Part shown: positions 1 through 64,000 of the stretch, one piece after another | Numbering within the stretch: position 1 is the stretch's first letter | How the letters are laid out: every line of letters starts with the position of its first letter | Sequence record: PQ390715.1 | Source: Escherichia phage SHEFM2K | DNA: 64,000 nucleotides | Strand: one strand, 5' to 3' | Made by a program: the position numbers and the translations under genes | The notes under the pieces: model-generated | Databases searched by the model: none | Told to the model about the DNA's origin: nothing | Seen by the model: the letters and a program-made list of their open reading frames with translations, nothing else

Positions 1-198
1 GGTGTATATACTAAATGTAGTGATTTACCAATAACATATTCTAATATAATTCAGTGGGGTAGTGGTACTATTGGTGGTGCTATATGTAGTAGTACAGAGT
101 TATACCAATGTGGCATCGGTCGATACATTGCTGGCGATGGTGCGAGCACAACCAGGTATGGATTTAGGAAGACACCATTACCTTGGGATGTTTATTGA
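1..198 (+). CDS. Gly-rich protein, 3' fragment (gene begins upstream of window); possibly a further RCC1-like paralog
   Basis: Frame open from nt 1 to TGA at 196-198; G/S/T-rich like the downstream paralogs (..GIGRYIAGDG..). Confidence 0.4.
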   Translation, partial: GVYTKCSDLPITYSNIIQWGSGTIGGAICSSTELYQCGIGRYIAGDGASTTRYGFRKTPLPWDVY

Positions 199-204
199 AA
201 TTAT

Positions 205-234
205 GCCAGTACAAAGTACTGGCTTTCTTATTTG
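205..234 (+). terminator. rho-independent terminator
   Basis: GCCAGTAC-AAA-GTACTGGC hairpin followed by TTTCTTATTTG; same GCCAGT..ACTGGC stem as terminator at 2636. Confidence 0.55.
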
Positions 235-268
235 TATTAAATATAGTATAATGAATAAGGAGGGAATT

Positions 269-1448
269 ATGTTACCTTTTGGAAGAATGGTTAAGTACGG
301 GAATATTGCACCTATATATGAATCTAGTGTAATTAAAATGCAAGCACCATCGGCTTTTACCAACAACACATTGATGATTCTGTATAAGAACGGTGATTTG
401 TGGGGTATTGGCGGTAACAATGCTGGTATATTCGGTCTTGGAAATACAACGACACAGACCAAATGGGTTCGCTTAATGCAAAATGTGAAAAATTTTTGGT
501 GCACAAGGAATGCTTCATATAGCTTAGTTCAGACCAATGATAATAAATTTTATTATGCAGGTTGGAACCTTTGGACTGGTACATCTAGTGCAGTTCAAAG
601 TACTACATTTGTTGATTGTACGTCTTATTTTTCAGGTTTTAATGTGGATAATATCAAGGAGATATATCCAAATGTTCGTAATATGTTTTTACTAACAAAT
701 GATAGTGTTCTTTACGCAATAGGTGATAATTCAACCTATGAGTTGGGTAGTAGTTCATCTACACTTACATCATTTACACAGGTTAATATTAATGTTAAAA
801 AGGTTAGTTCATTTTTCAATAGTCCAACTTGGATAATTAAAAATGATAATTCAGCATGGAGATGTGGTAAAACTAGTACTGGTACATTGTTAACTGGTTC
901 TGCTACTGATACTTTGACGAGTTGGACAAAGTATAGTTTTCCTACAGGCCAGTACCCCGTTGATATAATTTCATATAACAATATGTTGGGTATAGTTCTT
1001 AATGTAGATAATACTTATCCGCTATATGGTGTAGGGTCACAAAATTCACGGACAATTAGGAAATGGTGTTCTATCTAATACTAATAAGATATCTTTAACT
1101 CCACAAAGTACTTATTTACAATTAACTAATGTTTCCGATTTTGAATTTATACAAACATATTCACAAAATCCTAGGGGATTATTATATAGAAATGGAAGTC
1201 GTATTTTTGGAACAGGGTATAATAATTATGGACAGCTTGGTAACAATTCATCTAATAATGCTTCAATTTTCGTCCAAGCACAATTTCCAAATTCTGTAGT
1301 TTATGATCCGTCAACATCGTTGGTTGCTGCGAATGACAATGCATTATTTGCATATGTGAATGGGAAATTATACTACACTGGTATGTCTCCAGTAGGGACA
1401 GTTGTTGGTACATGGACTTTAACTGAATACCAATTGCCACAAATTTAA
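269..1448 (+). CDS. RCC1-like (GxxxxGQLG repeat) protein, paralog 1; reading frame needs +1 shift near nt 1046 (frame A 269..1045, frame B 1047..1448)
   Basis: RBS AAGGAGGG 5-13 nt upstream of ATG 269; N-terminus MLPFGRMVKYGNI shared with two paralogs; frame A stops at 1076-1078 but RCC1 repeats (HGQLGNG..GTGYNNYGQLG) continue in +1 frame to TAA 1446-1448. Confidence 0.55.
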
Positions 1449-1458
1449 GGAGAAAATT

Positions 1459-2628
1459 ATGTTACCTTTTGGAAGAATGTTAAAGTACGGAAATATTAAA
1501 CCAACTCTTCCTGAAATAAAGAAATTGGATGGTAGTCAATTACATGTCGGATTACTTTATAGTACAGGGAATATGTACATGCGTGGTTCTGGTTCGAACT
1601 ATAAATTAGGTACAGGGGATGCTAGTGATGTATTAGGTGGTTGGGTACATGTACCCTATGAAGTTGATGATTTTTGGGCGTGTGTATCCGGTACATTAAT
1701 AAAGACTGTTGATAATAAGTTATATTGTGCCGGACTATACATGGGTGGATATTTTGGGGCTAGTGGTTCATATGTTAACTGGACTGAAGTAACTTCATTA
1801 TTTGTAGGTATTGACGTGTCGCAAATAAAGAATATAGAATTTACGTCAGCGGGTACTTCCGGTAGTACACTAATATTGATGTTAGATGGTCGTTTATATG
1901 GGTTCGGTATGAACAGTAGATCTGAGTTAGGTGTTAATAACAAAGTTGTATCTCCCATTCTTATAGATACTGGGGTAAGTGCAATAGGAGCACATAAGTT
2001 AGGCGGTTCATCGTTCCATTATATAAAAGGCGGTAAGTACTACAGATGTGGAACATCGGTTGGTAGTAATATTGGAAGTTCTTCTTTAACTACTTTTACG
2101 GTATTGAGTATTCCTGATAACGTTATATCTATGCAAATATTATATGACAACGTACAGTTATTATGTTTAGGAAGTTCTGGATATAGTATCTATATGGCTG
2201 GTTCTAATGATTATGGTGGAAGAGGTGTTGGTGGTTCTACTGTTTACACTACATTCAGGAAAATAGATCTTACAGGATTTGGTGTTGTTCCCAGTGAAAT
2301 ACTATTTGAAAATGCCGGAAATGGTTATGTTAATATATCAACTGATAGTACTGGAGTATATACATGTGGTGGTGGGGCTGGTGTTAATGGTTTAGGTAGA
2401 CCAACTGATGTGATACCAAGTTCACAGTTGGGTTCGGTTCAGTTCAGTACTGGAGTAGTACCATCAAATATAAGTCGCGTGTATTCACAGAGTTCGAGTT
2501 CTGTTATATATTGTATAGTCAATAATGAATTGTACTGGGCTGGGAGTAATTCATATTTTACTGATCAAACCACAAATACTGGTACACAATTTTCATTTAT
2601 TAAAATGAAGGATATGCCTTCTGCTTAG
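1459..2628 (+). CDS. RCC1-like repeat protein, paralog 2 (intact, 389 aa)
   Basis: RBS AAGGAG; N-terminus MLPFGRMLKYGNI; repeated G-x4-G-[QK]-LG motifs; followed by terminator. Confidence 0.75.
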   Translation: MLPFGRMLKYGNIKPTLPEIKKLDGSQLHVGLLYSTGNMYMRGSGSNYKLGTGDASDVLGGWVHVPYEVDDFWACVSGTLIKTVDNKLYCAGLYMGGYFGASGSYVNWTEVTSLFVGIDVSQIKNIEFTSAGTSGSTLILMLDGRLYGFGMNSRSELGVNNKVVSPILIDTGVSAIGAHKLGGSSFHYIKGGKYYRCGTSVGSNIGSSSLTTFTVLSIPDNVISMQILYDNVQLLCLGSSGYSIYMAGSNDYGGRGVGGSTVYTTFRKIDLTGFGVVPSEILFENAGNGYVNISTDSTGVYTCGGGAGVNGLGRPTDVIPSSQLGSVQFSTGVVPSNISRVYSQSSSSVIYCIVNNELYWAGSNSYFTDQTTNTGTQFSFIKMKDMPSA

Positions 2629-2635
2629 ATTTTAT

Positions 2636-62236: not shown

Positions 62237-62515
62237 TCAAAGATTTTGTCGTTCATATAATCTCCTAATAAAATATTCTCGATTCTCTCTTATATACCCA
62301 GATACACAGTTAGTTGTGGCTTGGTTAGTGAATGAAATCTCACTATTGGACACGCCATTTGCATCACACAAAGGACATATTCCCATGTACTTGGGGGTCG
62401 GGTAGGTGTCCAATTTGTATTTTTCATTACACACCATGTACTGCTGTGGCAATACATCTAATATTATTTCATATTCTTCATCAAACACCTTGAAGCATAC
62501 CCAACATTTACCCAT
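62237..62515 (-). CDS. zinc-ribbon protein
   Basis: CWVC ... CPLC. Confidence 0.5.
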   Translation of the reverse strand: MGKCWVCFKVFDEEYEIILDVLPQQYMVCNEKYKLDTYPTPKYMGICPLCDANGVSNSEISFTNQATTNCVSGYIRENREYFIRRLYERQNL

Positions 62516-62999
62516 TATAGTTTTCCTTTAACACCGTTCTTATATATTCGAATGTTTTAACAAACCAATCATGTTCGTCGGATACATCTACAACTTTACC
62601 ACCATATACATAGTAATGGTAAAAAGGTAACTTGCTTTTTCTTAATCTTTCGGCTAACTCTGGATTTTGAATTATCTTAGCACAAATAGCATCTTGAATA
62701 ATAGAAATACAATCATCCGTCATTTCAATTCGATCATGCATATATTTGTTAGCGGCTGCTTTTGCTGCTGCACCAGATACTTTTCTAAGGTCATCATGTT
62801 TTTGCCCAGTTAAAAACCAAAAGTAAAATGTTTCAACTGAAGGGAACCAACCATATGGTTCAAGTGTGAAGCTATGCGAAGAAAAGTTAGATAGATCTCT
62901 ACCTAACTTAGTTCTAGCTTTACTATAAATGTTAATGTGTCGGTATCCATCATCAGTAGGGTCAATAAAGTCAAATGACTCTTCTGGGAACTCAAACAT
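62508..62999 (-). CDS. YbiA/NADAR-like (DUF1768) domain protein
   Basis: ..LSNFSSHSF..YGWFPSVETFYFWFLTGQK..RKVSGAAAKAAANKY.. parallels E. coli YbiA blocks (FSNF.., EHYFQAQKF, ..RRVSSPMVAARMGR..) as recalled. Confidence 0.5.
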   Translation of the reverse strand: MFEFPEESFDFIDPTDDGYRHINIYSKARTKLGRDLSNFSSHSFTLEPYGWFPSVETFYFWFLTGQKHDDLRKVSGAAAKAAANKYMHDRIEMTDDCISIIQDAICAKIIQNPELAERLRKSKLPFYHYYVYGGKVVDVSDEHDWFVKTFEYIRTVLKENYNG

Positions 63000-63001
63000 A
63001 A

Positions 63002-63355
63002 TTATTCTTCTTCTCCTGAAGGAGTTCCACGTAGTTTGTCAAAATCAACCCAAATACCATGCTGATTTTTAAATCTACATTTCTCATAGTACCAGCTATA
63101 GTCAGTTTCAACACCTTGTGATATAGATCTAACACTACAATCATACATATTATATAAATGATCCCTGACAATATACGTATTAATCAGAATAACAAACAAT
63201 ACAATAATACCACAGACTTTAGGATGATCCATAATCAAATCTAGAACGGAACTCGTTTCAGTACTGTCAATTTTACTACGACCGATGGCAACAGCTTTCA
63301 GTACTGCTAATGATACCAGTAATGAAATAACAAGAACACTCAAATAAATTAGCAT
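63002..63355 (-). CDS. membrane protein
   Basis: 117-aa hydrophobic ORF. Confidence 0.55.
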   Translation of the reverse strand: MLIYLSVLVISLLVSLAVLKAVAIGRSKIDSTETSSVLDLIMDHPKVCGIIVLFVILINTYIVRDHLYNMYDCSVRSISQGVETDYSWYYEKCRFKNQHGIWVDFDKLRGTPSGEEE

Positions 63356-63357
63356 AA

Positions 63358-63939
63358 TTAGACTCCTACACCAAAACGTAAAAGGATGTTATTAACAAAC
63401 ACAAAATCAAATGGAGACTTTGGTTCAGATACCGAGTACTGAAAAGTTTCAGCGGAGAAACTTTCCCTATTGTGCCATGTTGATGAATCGATTAGTAATT
63501 GTTTATCACCAATTGACGTTGAATGTAATGGAACGTGTGCTGATGAATTTATGGAATACGCATTTAGTTTTCCTTGTTCATCTAATGTGATACTAAGATA
63601 ATATTTTTTCTCAATATCAGGAATAAGTTCTTTTGTATACGAATAGATTGAATCAACCCATTCATCATGTACATTTTCTGCACCAATCAGGTGTCCGAAT
63701 GATAAATTACGTTTAACTGGCTTTGATCCTGGTCGAGTTAGAATGAATTGTTTTGTTAAGTAAAAATTATTATGTTTTACTTCAATATTAACATTTTTAA
63801 AATTCACCACTTTATCATATACATTTCGAAAAACTGTTATATCCCAAGTACTAATTTCATCCATAATACTTATCACCAGTTCTTCTAGTTCTTGTATAAA
63901 TGGCAAATCATCTTGATGAAATCTAGTCATGGTTTTCAT
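63358..63939 (-). CDS. hypothetical protein (weak FQxS-like motif ..SAETFQYSVSEP..)
   Basis: 193-aa ORF. Confidence 0.55.
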   Translation of the reverse strand: MKTMTRFHQDDLPFIQELEELVISIMDEISTWDITVFRNVYDKVVNFKNVNIEVKHNNFYLTKQFILTRPGSKPVKRNLSFGHLIGAENVHDEWVDSIYSYTKELIPDIEKKYYLSITLDEQGKLNAYSINSSAHVPLHSTSIGDKQLLIDSSTWHNRESFSAETFQYSVSEPKSPFDFVFVNNILLRFGVGV

Positions 63940-64000
63940 ATACCTTTTTCAAATTCATAATTTCAAGAATGCTGTATTCTTTATCACCAATCAAATCTTC

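Follow-up and report, generated by a model that had tools for sequence, protein, structure and literature searches.

A roughly sevenfold excess of AGTACT across a clade of giant phages suggests a possible DNA "self" signal specific to these phages

The word AGTACT is strongly over-represented in the window (the whole stretch of 64,000 bases analysed here; GC 33.3%), which derives from a RaK2-like jumbo coliphage (Asteriusvirus; 98% identity to PBECO4/SP27). The excess is real, acts at the DNA level and is under selection. Tentatively, with a probability of about 38%, AGTACT may be the recognition word of a putative factor encoded by this phage clade, which would read the half-site 5'-(C)AGTAC-3', mark phage DNA and control early promoters. 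The interpretation in the original prediction is, as a whole, partly supported. No description of the trait was found in the literature searched.

AGTACT occurs 175 times in the window, against 21.7 copies expected from base composition (8.1x) and 62.5 under an order-3 Markov model, which bears out the predicted excess. No other 6-mer is as strongly over-represented, and extensions of AGTACT head the 7- and 8-mers. CAGTACT is found 85 times, AGTACTG 76 times and the full palindrome CAGTACTG 40 times, where 0.6 would be expected (~68x). As had been predicted, extension is frequent, with C at -1 or G at +6 at 121 of the 175 sites and both at 40. The extended consensus is t-t-C-AGTACT-G-a-a; these flank preferences are symmetric, while the longer context is not conserved and flanks are diverse. 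Every 4-kb bin of the window holds 7-16 copies, with a mean spacing of 366 bp and a largest gap of 1,426 bp. Enrichment extends to every 10-kb bin across 300 kb, and the whole genome carries ~850 ScaI-type sites. An earlier hand count of 15 copies in 20000-25000 proved exact, but that of 11 in 1-5000 fell short of the actual 15. The copies start at the following positions.

AGTACT starts: 215, 599, 875, 1107, 2036, 2347, 2446, 3434, 3785, 3821, 3968, 4513, 4523, 4859, 4978
AGTACT starts: 5177, 5596, 6886, 7350, 7366, 7778, 7885, 8067, 8885, 9669, 9779
AGTACT starts: 10085, 10177, 10656, 11088, 11146, 11310, 11459, 11687, 11920, 12221, 12279, 12307, 12698, 13172, 13792, 13975
AGTACT starts: 14193, 14212, 14506, 14799, 14817, 15420, 15467, 15557, 15982, 16255, 16599, 16840, 17967, 17991, 18306, 18640
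AGTACT starts: 19256, 19615, 20474, 20496, 20847, 21590, 21825, 22581, 22644, 23189, 23673, 23740, 23859, 23973, 24048, 24140, 24292
AGTACT starts: 25485, 25638, 26229, 26250, 26305, 26342, 26444, 27273, 27478, 27716, 28054, 28401, 28463, 28597, 28766, 29177, 29401
AGTACT starts: 30123, 30489, 30662, 31508, 31743, 32234, 32342, 32878, 33064, 34099, 34609, 34995, 35258, 35369, 35556, 35729, 35895
AGTACT starts: 36075, 36998, 38424, 38533, 39416, 39446, 39805, 40274, 41392, 41427, 41996, 42372, 43114, 43347, 44186, 44657, 44677
AGTACT starts: 44727, 44782, 44822, 45136, 45189, 45209, 45693, 46219, 46762, 47324, 47477, 47556, 48012, 48138, 49002, 49902
AGTACT starts: 50248, 50626, 51463, 52738, 53096, 53335, 53695, 53791, 54253, 54274, 54861, 55440, 55912, 56051, 56109, 56514, 56681
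AGTACT starts: 57296, 57682, 58524, 58558, 59183, 59376, 59768, 60166, 60783, 61085, 61107, 62191, 63260, 63300, 63435, 63847

About 90% of the window is coding sequence, with ~1.15 sites per gene. Copies had been expected in both coding and intergenic DNA, and indeed 155 lie within coding sequences (frames 0/1/2: 71/37/47) and 20 outside, at densities of 2.7/kb and 3.2/kb, respectively. Two codon-aware nulls of 300 shuffles each gave far fewer copies: 64.8 +/- 5.7 (max 80) when synonymous codons were shuffled within genes (observed/null 2.7, z = 19), and 42.9 +/- 4.7 when codon order was shuffled (observed/null 4.1, z = 28). Both ratios are conservative, because each null retains the 20 non-coding sites and draws on codon frequencies that the motif itself has raised. 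The observed frequency thus lies outside a twofold range of either null. This leaves next to no room for the excess being a by-product of codon or dipeptide usage, repeated cassettes or avoidance of other palindromes. It is true that Ser is most often encoded by AGT and Thr by ACT, that frame 0 (Ser-Thr) is the commonest, and that promoter cassettes multiply AGTACT in the terminal repeat. However, the shuffles already refute such an origin, and enrichment in every reading frame as well as in non-coding DNA, the diverse flanks and the enrichment of every 10-kb bin also count against it.

The premise that such genomes avoid palindromes is both real and extreme here: 25 of the 64 six-base palindromes have zero copies in the window, and GCGC is absent against 48 expected. 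The AGTACT-rich phages have zero GCGC and lack ~25 six-base palindromes. The excess of AGTACT stands out all the more in genomes from which nearly all other restriction-type palindromes have been purged. Among other GTAC-centred palindromes, GGTACC and CGTACG are absent and TGTACA reaches only 2.5x, a further argument against a by-product. One-off neighbour words of AGTACT, including its transition neighbours, are not systematically depleted.

The trait is shared well beyond the window. Samples of six phages from four genera contain 108-117 AGTACT per 50 kb (6.5-6.9x), and the hosts of enriched phages include Escherichia, Klebsiella, Cronobacter, Yersinia and Xanthomonas. No excess is seen in a distant Vibrio jumbo phage (0.6x), and the unrelated coliphage PHB05 has no copy where 16.8 are expected. 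A signature shared with the host, one of the options first proposed, can be rejected on two grounds: a 50-kb sample of E. coli K-12 is depleted (3 copies vs 11.6 expected, 0.26x; 0.06/kb vs 2.7/kb in the phage, ~45-fold), and the trait is alike in phages of five host genera. The other options first proposed, namely a dimeric DNA-binding protein, a nicking or packaging signal or a modification target, may still apply.

Sites are also conserved 2-2.7 times as strongly as control words. At codon-aligned positions, 22 of 53 sites are common to the window and RaK2, compared with 15.6% of same-composition control words (P = 6e-6); for GAP32 the figures are 11 of 50 and 10% (P = 0.01). In CRJP21 (97.8% identity), 3.9% of sites are altered vs 9.5% of control words (P = 0.017). 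On these sequence comparisons, AGTACT sites are judged to be under purifying selection. Spacing is more even than random in seven of eight samples (gap coefficient of variation 0.80-0.97), with long gaps missing, and density in the terminal repeats reaches 20x. Density and spacing are held constant across genera, and the word is held by DNA-level selection that bends codon and amino-acid choice.

The original prediction placed the word in promoter spacers, and five sigma-70 promoters confirm this. They are listed below with an inverted pair and a tRNA gene discussed afterwards.

45129..45156, minus strand: sigma-70-type early promoter, TTGACT-N9-AGTACT-G-TATAAT; AGTACT at 45136-45141 in the spacer, adjoining the -10
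44649..44682, minus strand: early promoter with both AGTACT positions and -35 TTGACT; sites at 44677-44682 and 44657-44662
28047..28074, minus strand: early promoter, TTGACA-N9-AGTACT-G-TATAAT; AGTACT at 28054-28059
23733..23760, minus strand: early promoter, TTGACA-N9-AGTACT-G-TATAAT; AGTACT at 23740-23745
12691..12718, minus strand: early promoter, TTGACA-N9-AGTACT-G-TATAAT; AGTACT at 12698-12703
4511..4530, minus strand: pair CCAGTACT-tgat-AGTACTGG, located after a stop codon and before the next ribosome-binding site
44547..44638, minus strand: tRNA-Ser, anticodon ACU (loop CUACUAA)

In the promoter at 44649..44682, the last T of the site at 44677-44682 is the first T of the -35 TTGACT, the site at 44657-44662 adjoins the -10, and the two lie 20 bp apart. 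Promoters laid out as aAAAGTAC-TTGACA-N9-10-AGTACT-N1-3-yATAAT are found in the window (5 promoters) and again in the CRJP21 terminal repeat, the RaK2 hot zone and GAP32; the sequence separating the two copies differs from spacer to spacer. In three genera, immediate-early sigma-70 promoters carry AGTACT at two fixed positions, one copy sharing its final T with the -35 hexamer and the other abutting the -10, 20-22 bp (two helical turns) downstream. AGTACT is held at these exact positions in dozens of such promoters, whereas ordinary coding sites are only 22-41% conserved. The copy adjoining the -10 partly overlaps an extended -10 'TG', and its conservation may be due in part to RNA polymerase itself. 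A link to promoters exists for just 5-9 of the 175 sites in the window, too few for a promoter role to account for most of the excess.

The hairpin predicted at 4511-4530 is present, with a possible 8-bp stem and no T-run after it, but its significance is trivial: any two copies of a palindrome are inverted repeats (here 10 bp apart). The tRNA-Ser(ACU), which begins 10 bp downstream of the promoter at 44649..44682, matches AGU by exact Watson-Crick pairing; this codon opens the motif as it is most often read in frame (AGT-ACT, Ser-Thr, frame 0). Of the Ser codons 32% are AGT, and of the Thr codons 47% are ACT; 71 of 415 AGT codons lie inside AGTACT. We infer a possible link between this tRNA and the motif, although a Vibrio phage lacking the excess carries such a tRNA-Ser too.

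Beside the left terminal repeat of Asteriusvirus genomes, outside the window, the palindrome is replaced by strictly one-stranded arrays of AGTACA or TGTACT. For example, CRJP21 has 40 AGTACA, no AGTACT and at most two GTACT at 27.8-35.3 kb, and 10 TGTACT with one AGTACA at 20.0-25.2 kb. The arrays are thus oriented 40:0 and 1:10, with 6-14 fold enrichment. The same layout is found in PBECO4 and Ecwhy_1 (85% identical). Array AGTACA occupies all three frames and keeps the -1 C preference on its intact side only, suggesting that the half-site, not the palindrome, is the unit. In all three phages the blocks diverge from a 2.5-kb centre at ~25-28 kb, with the unit on the strand that forks leaving this centre would use as lagging-strand template, and the bias fades over ~40 kb. 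AT and GC skew step at ~26 kb, even though all genes there run in the same direction, as do those of the two blocks with opposite half-words. The centre showed neither iterons nor any other feature of an origin. RaK2 is biased (90:45) but has no strict blocks, and both are missing from the part of GAP32 examined; being lineage-limited, the strict blocks may reflect a second, separate use of AGTACT.

A factor reading 5'-(C)AGTAC-3' would make the palindrome simply a half-site on both strands. The putative sequence-specific DNA-binding protein would occupy each half-site with one subunit and the palindrome as a dimer. Two such dimers, bound to the same face of the helix at immediate-early promoters, could bracket the -35 and gate host RNA polymerase, resulting in temporal control or shut-off. 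Dispersed copies would load the same protein along the whole phage chromosome, marking it as self. In the uniform one-stranded arrays, bound subunits might act directionally on a DNA tracker, such as a replication fork, nuclease or DNA motor. However, a symmetric dimer alone does not explain the strict orientation of the arrays or their enrichment, a pattern that fits an enzyme for which one strand is the better substrate to read.

The closest analogues of the word appear to be cyanobacterial HIP1, Chi and KOPS. HIP1 (GCGATCGC), in the portions of the reports consulted, is likewise a palindrome of 8 bases whose inner 6-mer is stricter, occurs far above expectation in all coding frames and in non-coding DNA, and is non-randomly distributed with positions conserved beyond controls (PMC5861425, PMC4390886). 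Fixed promoter positions and oriented half-site blocks characterise the phage word, and those portions mention neither for HIP1 (PMC5861425, PMC4390886). Unlike HIP1, the phage word is viral, AT-rich and different in sequence, and a search for its cognate methyltransferase found none, as the one candidate tested looks CpG-specific. Chi (GCTGGTGG) and KOPS (GGGNAGGG) are polar words over-represented in bacterial chromosomes, asymmetric and skewed genome-wide, that give DNA-tracking enzymes a dense self or orientation signal and switch orientation about a chromosomal landmark. The Asteriusvirus blocks similarly diverge from one centre, but most phage copies, being palindromic, have no direction, and only ~15-45 kb next to one terminal repeat shows polarity.

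Other systems share single aspects. The genome-coating proteins p6 of phi29 and TF1 of SPO1 also repress early promoters and, like the proposed factor, act along their own phage DNA in preference to host DNA; they recognise bendability or hydroxymethyluracil, however, and not a 6-base word. Uptake sequences (USS/DUS) of Haemophilus and Neisseria mark self about once per kb, in genes in all frames and sometimes as intergenic inverted pairs, but are asymmetric, 9-12 bases long and read by the transformation machinery; nothing connects the phage word with DNA uptake. The SlmA-binding site of E. coli (GTGAGTACTCAC) has an identical AGTACT core. The flanks that SlmA requires are not enriched but depleted at phage sites (G at -1 in 8-9%; 56 sites with <=3 flank mismatches vs 92 expected), and a Xanthomonas phage shows the trait too.

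An unlikely but substantial alternative dispenses with a dedicated binding protein. Here, the phage replication or recombination machinery would read strand-specific 5'-(C)AGTAC-3' while tracking single strands, either as a lagging-strand priming site or as a Chi-like word taming a nuclease and promoting recombination, the palindrome being the cheapest way to serve both strands. T4 and T7 primases start pppAC opposite 5'-GT of template trinucleotide sites, and under this rule 5'-CAGTA would template pppACUG. The divergent blocks with their unit on the lagging-strand template, the fading bias and its counterpart in RaK2, and the skew step despite uniform gene direction all favour this account. 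Even spacing, with no gap >2.3 kb outside the blocks, suits Okazaki-scale priming or nuclease checkpoints, the dense terminal repeats must recombine to form concatemers, and the phage-host contrast is expected of a Chi-type marker. Nevertheless, it leaves the two exact positions in immediate-early promoters unexplained; no cost is obvious for priming or Chi sites that lie on the 'wrong' strand, yet that orientation is wholly excluded in the blocks. The featureless centre and the missing strict blocks in RaK2 and GAP32 weigh against it too, and known primases recognise three to five bases.

It is improbable that AGTACT is instead the target of a phage DNA-modifying enzyme (an N6-adenine methyltransferase or Mom-like), kept abundant as proposed for HIP1 because the mark is a self signal or because methyl-dependent very-short-patch-type repair regenerates sites. 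The anatomy shared with HIP1 supports this, including, in the portions consulted, the concentration of deviations at the two outer bases (PMC4390886, PMC5861425). So does the need to protect the ScaI-type sites in a palindrome-purging genome, when the unrelated coliphage purged AGTACT completely. The clade also encodes several methyltransferases, and RaK2 a Mom-like protein (PMC5259590, PMC11895373). However, the sole DNA methyltransferase of the window, a C5 enzyme of 286 aa, most resembles DNMT3 catalytic domains; RaK2 DNA is reported to carry m5CpG, and the enzyme probably acts on CpG, which AGTACT lacks (PMC3622015). PHB05 has a 51%-identical homologue and yet zero AGTACT, no Vsr domain lies beside the window gene, and the undepleted neighbour words are contrary to biased repair. 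Modification alone would give neutrality rather than a 7-fold excess, and a palindrome-recognising enzyme does not explain oriented half-site blocks. An RNA-level signal, with AGUACU in transcripts of either strand bound by a protein or cut by an endoribonuclease setting mRNA lifetime, is very improbable. The largely coding window, at about one site per gene, would suit it, and the special blocks of relatives would give transcripts without the full hexamer. Yet the reverse-complement-symmetric flanks are expected of double-stranded recognition, non-coding DNA is equally dense, sites lie within promoters upstream of transcription starts, and blocks carry opposite half-words despite the same gene direction.

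A phage-encoded factor reading AGTAC half-sites is the preferred, tentative reading. Overall, the ~7-fold excess of AGTACT across this clade of giant phages suggests a DNA "self" signal specific to these phages.

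The window contains 175 copies of the hexamer AGTACT; base composition predicts 21.7, and an order-3 Markov model 62.5. This bears out the original prediction of a window-wide excess, which had come from hand counts: the count of 15 for 20000-25000 was exact, while the 11 copies counted in 1-5000 are in fact 15. The extended forms CAGTACT and AGTACTG number 85 and 76, and the palindromic octamer CAGTACTG is found 40 times versus 0.6 expected (159 versus 2.9 in 300 kb of the related phage CRJP21). AGTACT, CAGTACT/AGTACTG and CAGTACTG are the top over-represented 6-, 7- and 8-mers of the window. 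Every 4-kb bin, without exception, holds 7-16 copies of the core, which is also enriched in all 10-kb bins of the 300 kb of CRJP21. Asteriusvirus-type coliphages carry ~850 AGTACT copies per genome of ~350 kb.

The excess also holds against codon-aware nulls. Shuffling synonymous codons inside each gene gave 64.8 +/- 5.7 copies and shuffling codon order gave 42.9 +/- 4.7, so the observed count is 2.7-4.1 times these nulls (z = 19-28) and more than 2-fold above either. Both nulls are conservative because non-coding sites were retained and codon frequencies are already inflated by the motif, and both codon-preserving shuffles rule out a codon or dipeptide by-product as the cause. A maximal-order Markov model expects 136 copies, but it was set aside as a null because it is conditioned on sub-words that are themselves motif-enriched.

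The window is 98% identical to the Escherichia jumbo phages SP27, PBECO4, CRJP21 and their relatives, which belong to the genus Asteriusvirus, the RaK2-like group, with genomes of ~350 kb. It has 33.3% GC and is ~90% coding; heuristic gene calling gave ~152 genes, most of them small, and past 3.8 kb almost every one is on the minus strand. The equivalent region of CRJP21 lies at roughly 270-334 kb, reverse-complemented. Three paralogous genes for RCC1-like beta-propeller repeat proteins (assigned by PF25390, below the curated cut-off) stand on the opposite strand at 158-1078, 1459-2628 and 2957-3853 (+), and CRJP21 has a longer array of such genes beside its right terminal repeat. Product names in the CRJP21 GenBank record (OQ708376.1) look displaced relative to the genes; for instance, 'terminase large subunit' is a 300-bp ORF and 'major capsid protein' a 2.2-kb ORF. 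These functional labels are not to be trusted and were left out of the analysis.

The AGTACT signal acts on DNA. The 155 coding sites in the window are spread over frame 0 (71, read as Ser-Thr), frame 1 (37, x-Tyr-x) and frame 2 (47, x-Val-Leu); coding DNA has 2.7 copies/kb and non-coding DNA 3.2. Position -1 is C in 45-49% of sites, with G lowered to 5-9%, and position +6 is G in 43-46%. This preference is reverse-complement-symmetric. Flanking information is confined to these two adjacent bases, more distant flanks being weakly T/A-rich; the sites are not copies of any longer repeat. Sites are spaced somewhat more regularly than at random, with a coefficient of variation between sites of 0.85 in the window (P = 0.013) and of 0.80-0.97 in seven of eight samples, in which long gaps are missing. 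Genome-wide helical periodicity was rejected, as the search returned just an 18-24 bp cluster due to promoter pairs.

Purifying selection acts on individual sites, with some turnover. When orthologues of CRJP21 and Klebsiella phage RaK2 are codon-aligned (69.6% nucleotide identity), 22 of 53 CRJP21 sites (41.5%) have AGTACT at the same position in RaK2, versus 15.6% for control words of the same composition (P = 6e-6). The same comparison with Cronobacter phage GAP32 gave 11 of 50 (22%) versus 10% (P = 0.01). Between the window and CRJP21 (97.8% identity), 3.9% of AGTACT sites have changed versus 9.5% of control words (P = 0.017), with nine sites found in CRJP21 only and five in the window only.

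Relatives for a wider comparison were defined by a sigma-70-family protein with regions 2, 3 and 4, encoded in the window at 30458-31423 (-) and kept across the clade at 35-59% identity. CRJP21 was covered over ~346 kb and the other relatives as 50-kb pieces, of which five held 108-117 AGTACT each (6.5-6.9x):

Ecwhy_1, second Asteriusvirus lineage, AGTACT-rich 50-kb sample
RaK2, Klebsiella phage, AGTACT-rich 50-kb sample
GAP32, Cronobacter phage, AGTACT-rich 50-kb sample
fHe-Yen9-04, Yersinia phage, AGTACT-rich 50-kb sample
XbC2, Xanthomonas phage, AGTACT-rich 50-kb sample

A distant Vibrio jumbo phage, with a sigma factor 26% identical, has AGTACT at 0.6x and normal GCGC, and the unrelated coliphage PHB05 has no AGTACT versus 16.8 expected. 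A single 50-kb sample of E. coli K-12 contains three AGTACT (0.26x) and 6.8 GCGC per kb; measured on that sample, the phage-host contrast is ~45-fold for AGTACT and absolute for GCGC. The excess is a trait of the phage clade and not of the host. The suggestion that AGTACT is a signature shared with the host therefore falls, given the low E. coli value and the host-independence of the trait across the clade.

Other palindromes are avoided to an extreme extent. Of the 64 six-base palindromes, 25 are missing altogether from the window; 25 are likewise missing from 300 kb of CRJP21, where ~27 copies of each would be expected for most of them. GCGC is found in neither (0 versus 48 expected in the window and 0 versus 248 in 300 kb of CRJP21). 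Likewise, the five 50-kb samples have zero GCGC, with 24-28 palindromes absent from each. Despite the enrichment of GTAC, GGTACC and CGTACG are absent, and TGTACA reaches 2.5x at most in the window. With these six-base palindromes and GCGC missing, the phage DNA is shaped by classical restriction avoidance. The complete lack of GCGC across five host genera suggests something more than ordinary avoidance, such as a phage nuclease that spares GCGC-free DNA. Ten restriction enzymes cut Asteriusvirus DNA normally (PMC13070987), which disfavours global hypermodification.

AGTACT also holds fixed positions in predicted immediate-early promoters. The direct terminal repeat of CRJP21 (20,152 bp; for the terminal repeat, cf. 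PMC13070987) contains 6.4 copies/kb, ~20x expectation, and is an array of small genes, each preceded by a predicted strong promoter of sigma-70 type, aAAAGTAC-TTGACA-N9-10-(y)AGTACTG-(g)yATAAT. The last T of the first AGTACT doubles as part of the -35 hexamer, and the second copy directly adjoins the -10 element, 20-22 bp away across a variable spacer. This layout is shared by the RaK2 hot zone and by GAP32, in the latter also at promoters that its authors had annotated. A two-pattern scan found 14 matches for the -10-adjoining site and 18 for the -35-overlap site in the CRJP21 terminal repeat, and 20 and 14, respectively, in the RaK2 hot zone; GAP32 gave ten matches for the -10-adjoining site. 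In the window, such promoters are found at:

45129-45156, minus strand, AGTACT promoter
44649-44682, minus strand, AGTACT promoter
28047-28074, minus strand, AGTACT promoter
23733-23760, minus strand, AGTACT promoter
12691-12718, minus strand, AGTACT promoter

Just 5-9 of the 175 window copies are linked to promoters, and the other ~95% do not hold the fixed -35/-10 position. AGTACT is retained far more tightly at promoters than at ordinary sites, which indicates a function at the promoters concerned.

Other features were seen in the window. A cluster of six tRNA genes at 42710-46794 (-) comprises Thr-UGU, Asn, Met, Ser-ACU, Ser-UGA and Gly-UCC; the tRNA-Ser with the A34 anticodon ACU (loop CUACUAA) is unusual, and an AGTACT-bearing promoter lies 10 bp upstream of it; a tRNA-Ser(ACT) is also annotated in the Vibrio outgroup phage. 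Eight copies of an intergenic cassette, aaaGGGTTGACTTCGGTCAGCCCttttt..TATAAT, are read on the minus strand:

8199-8216, minus strand, cassette copy
9920-9937, minus strand, cassette copy
10845-10862, minus strand, cassette copy
15843-15860, minus strand, cassette copy
16928-16945, minus strand, cassette copy
18547-18564, minus strand, cassette copy
18730-18747, minus strand, cassette copy
21972-21989, minus strand, cassette copy

Each looks like a terminator in having a UUCG-capped stem and a T-run, and the stem includes TTGACT, 17 bp upstream of TATAAT, so that terminator and early promoter would be combined in one element. The cassettes resemble the 'promoter-early stem-loop' cassettes of T4-type phages, and their promoters contain no AGTACT.

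Outside the window, two stretches directly inside the left terminal repeat of CRJP21 are free of AGTACT and hold one-stranded forms. The left block (20,016-25,194) contains 10 TGTACT, with T preceding 13 of 14 GTAC. The right block (27,767-35,321) contains 40 AGTACA and none of the opposite form; GTACA accounts for 62 of its 69 GTAC and GTACT for at most two. The balance of AGTACA to TGTACT types is 1:10 in the left block versus 40:0 in the right. The 2.5 kb between the blocks have normal AGTACT. If sites had the genome's mean density, a 7.5-kb gap would arise with a probability of ~1e-8. Plus-strand AGTAC density in the right block is as usual, and only the minus-strand partner is missing. 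AGTACA occurs there in all three frames, the genes of both blocks are all co-oriented, and the C preference at -1 is retained on the intact side only. The identical three-part layout in PBECO4 and in the 85%-identical Ecwhy_1 rules out a sequencing artefact.

The blocks diverge from ~26 kb, and the half-site bias fades over ~40 kb, by ~65 kb. In RaK2 (245-275 kb) the bias is partial yet significant (90:45). None was found in the examined GAP32 stretch or in the window, where half-sites are balanced; nor was there a genome-wide polarity, and no mirror-image blocks were found beside the right terminal repeat of CRJP21. AT and GC skews step at ~26 kb in CRJP21, which is not decisive for an origin, and no iterons were found between the blocks, where repeats stem from paralogous genes. 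The unit of the signal is the half-site, (C)AGTAC, apparently read with polarity. Since the blocks, as double-stranded DNA, are identical save for orientation, the reader must be directional.

The leading explanation is a phage-encoded factor that would recognise AGTAC half-sites, sit on the palindrome AGTACT as a dimer, form an operator pair at immediate-early promoters, mark the entire phage chromosome as self, and act directionally where just one oriented half-site is present. We give this combined reading a probability of roughly 0.4; the binding protein and its actions are what we infer beside the observed selection, clade specificity, promoter positions and half-site unit. Promoter positions are explained less well by the main rival, a rather unlikely one, in which no binding protein exists and the word would be read on single strands by a tracking enzyme, in a priming-site or Chi-like version. 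This rival in turn does better than a binding factor on the oriented blocks, on the even spacing and on the enrichment in the terminal repeats, which recombine. Primases of T4 and T7 alike begin opposite a 5'-GT, and the priming version has a formal fit in the GT within AGTAC and in the orientation relative to the putative centre. An action at the RNA level is unlikely, being disfavoured by the symmetric flanks and by the sites in promoters.

A HIP1-like modification target would fit the anatomy of the word and the need to protect ~850 ScaI-type sites, but this model is without a cognate enzyme and appears doubtful. One candidate is encoded in the window:

55673-56533, minus strand, C5 cytosine DNA methyltransferase of 286 aa (PF00145, E = 7.5e-38)

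Its closest solved relatives are the catalytic domains of eukaryotic DNMT3A/3B/3C (E ~1e-23, full length), and by this resemblance it is probably CpG-specific, which fits the m5CpG reported in RaK2 DNA (PMC3622015). PHB05 and further Justusliebigvirus phages, as well as other coliphages of roughly 140-150 kb, encode homologues with 51% identity. The DNMT3 likeness, the homologue in AGTACT-free PHB05 and the lack of a Vsr domain nearby argue against this enzyme as the cognate of AGTACT and count against the modification model. A further point against it is that one-off neighbour words are not depleted; together with a 1.3-2.2x enrichment of outer-position variants, this also dismisses very-short-patch-like biased repair. 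The clade encodes N6-adenine and Mom-like enzymes as well, and no methylome or ScaI digest of these phages was found in the literature searched.

AGTACT can be compared with several known words. The cyanobacterial word HIP1 (PMC4390886, PMC5861425) is likewise an octamer in excess, its inner hexamer being the stricter part, found in all frames, with conserved sites, non-random spacing and a function still to be explained. Like HIP-type elements, AGTACT extends to a many-fold enriched palindromic octamer, is present in all frames and in non-coding DNA beyond what codon usage explains, and is conserved beyond control words. Unlike HIP1, it is viral and AT-rich, has no methyltransferase partner found, sits in early promoters and forms natural one-stranded arrays. 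Locally it resembles the polar words Chi and KOPS, in that half-site orientation appears to be tied to a landmark at ~26 kb in relatives. The E. coli Chi octamer GCTGGTGG itself occurs 16 times on the plus and seven times on the minus strand of CRJP21 (1-300 kb), versus ~1 expected each, and as 0 + 2 copies in the window; several relatives show 4-14x enrichment of CTGGTG, TGGTGG and GGTGGT. Gly/Thr-rich repeats of fibre and structural genes are the probable source of both excesses. The SlmA site is a 12-base palindrome, GTGAGTACTCAC, with GT and AC arms around an AGTACT core; SlmA binding was rejected for the phage sites, as the required flanks are depleted rather than enriched. No mention of AGTACT or CAGTACTG in connection with phages was found in the literature on PBECO4, 121Q, RaK2, CBB, GAP32-type phages, Sharanji and fEgEco12, nor by full-text search.

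More tentatively, AGTACT may be a private phage 'self-word', its half-site read strand by strand by a tracking machine, such as a primase-helicase, a nuclease controller like that of Chi or a motor guide like KOPS. The palindrome would serve both strands, oriented arrays beside the left terminal repeat would set direction around a replication origin or concatemer-processing site, and the word would be wired into immediate-early promoters. If true, Chi, KOPS or HIP1 would have a counterpart in viruses, and self/non-self discrimination would have its other half in the total removal of host-rich GCGC.

Chi, KOPS, uptake sequences and HIP1 are over-represented words that each revealed a chromosome-reading machine, and to our knowledge HIP1 is unsolved after three decades. 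The AGTACT case is compact and tractable, in culturable E. coli phages of ~350 kb. It can be approached experimentally in two ways, through the defined positions in promoters and through natural stretches of 5-7 kb with the word on one strand. The ~850 copies cost codon freedom and expose the phages to ScaI-type restriction, and the word is kept in phages of five host genera. Together with the absolute lack of GCGC, it provides simple metagenome markers for the clade and constraints when engineering these phages for therapy. Its reader, once found, would explain how phage and host DNA are discriminated in nucleus-less jumbo phages, and could also locate the replication origin or concatemer-processing site.
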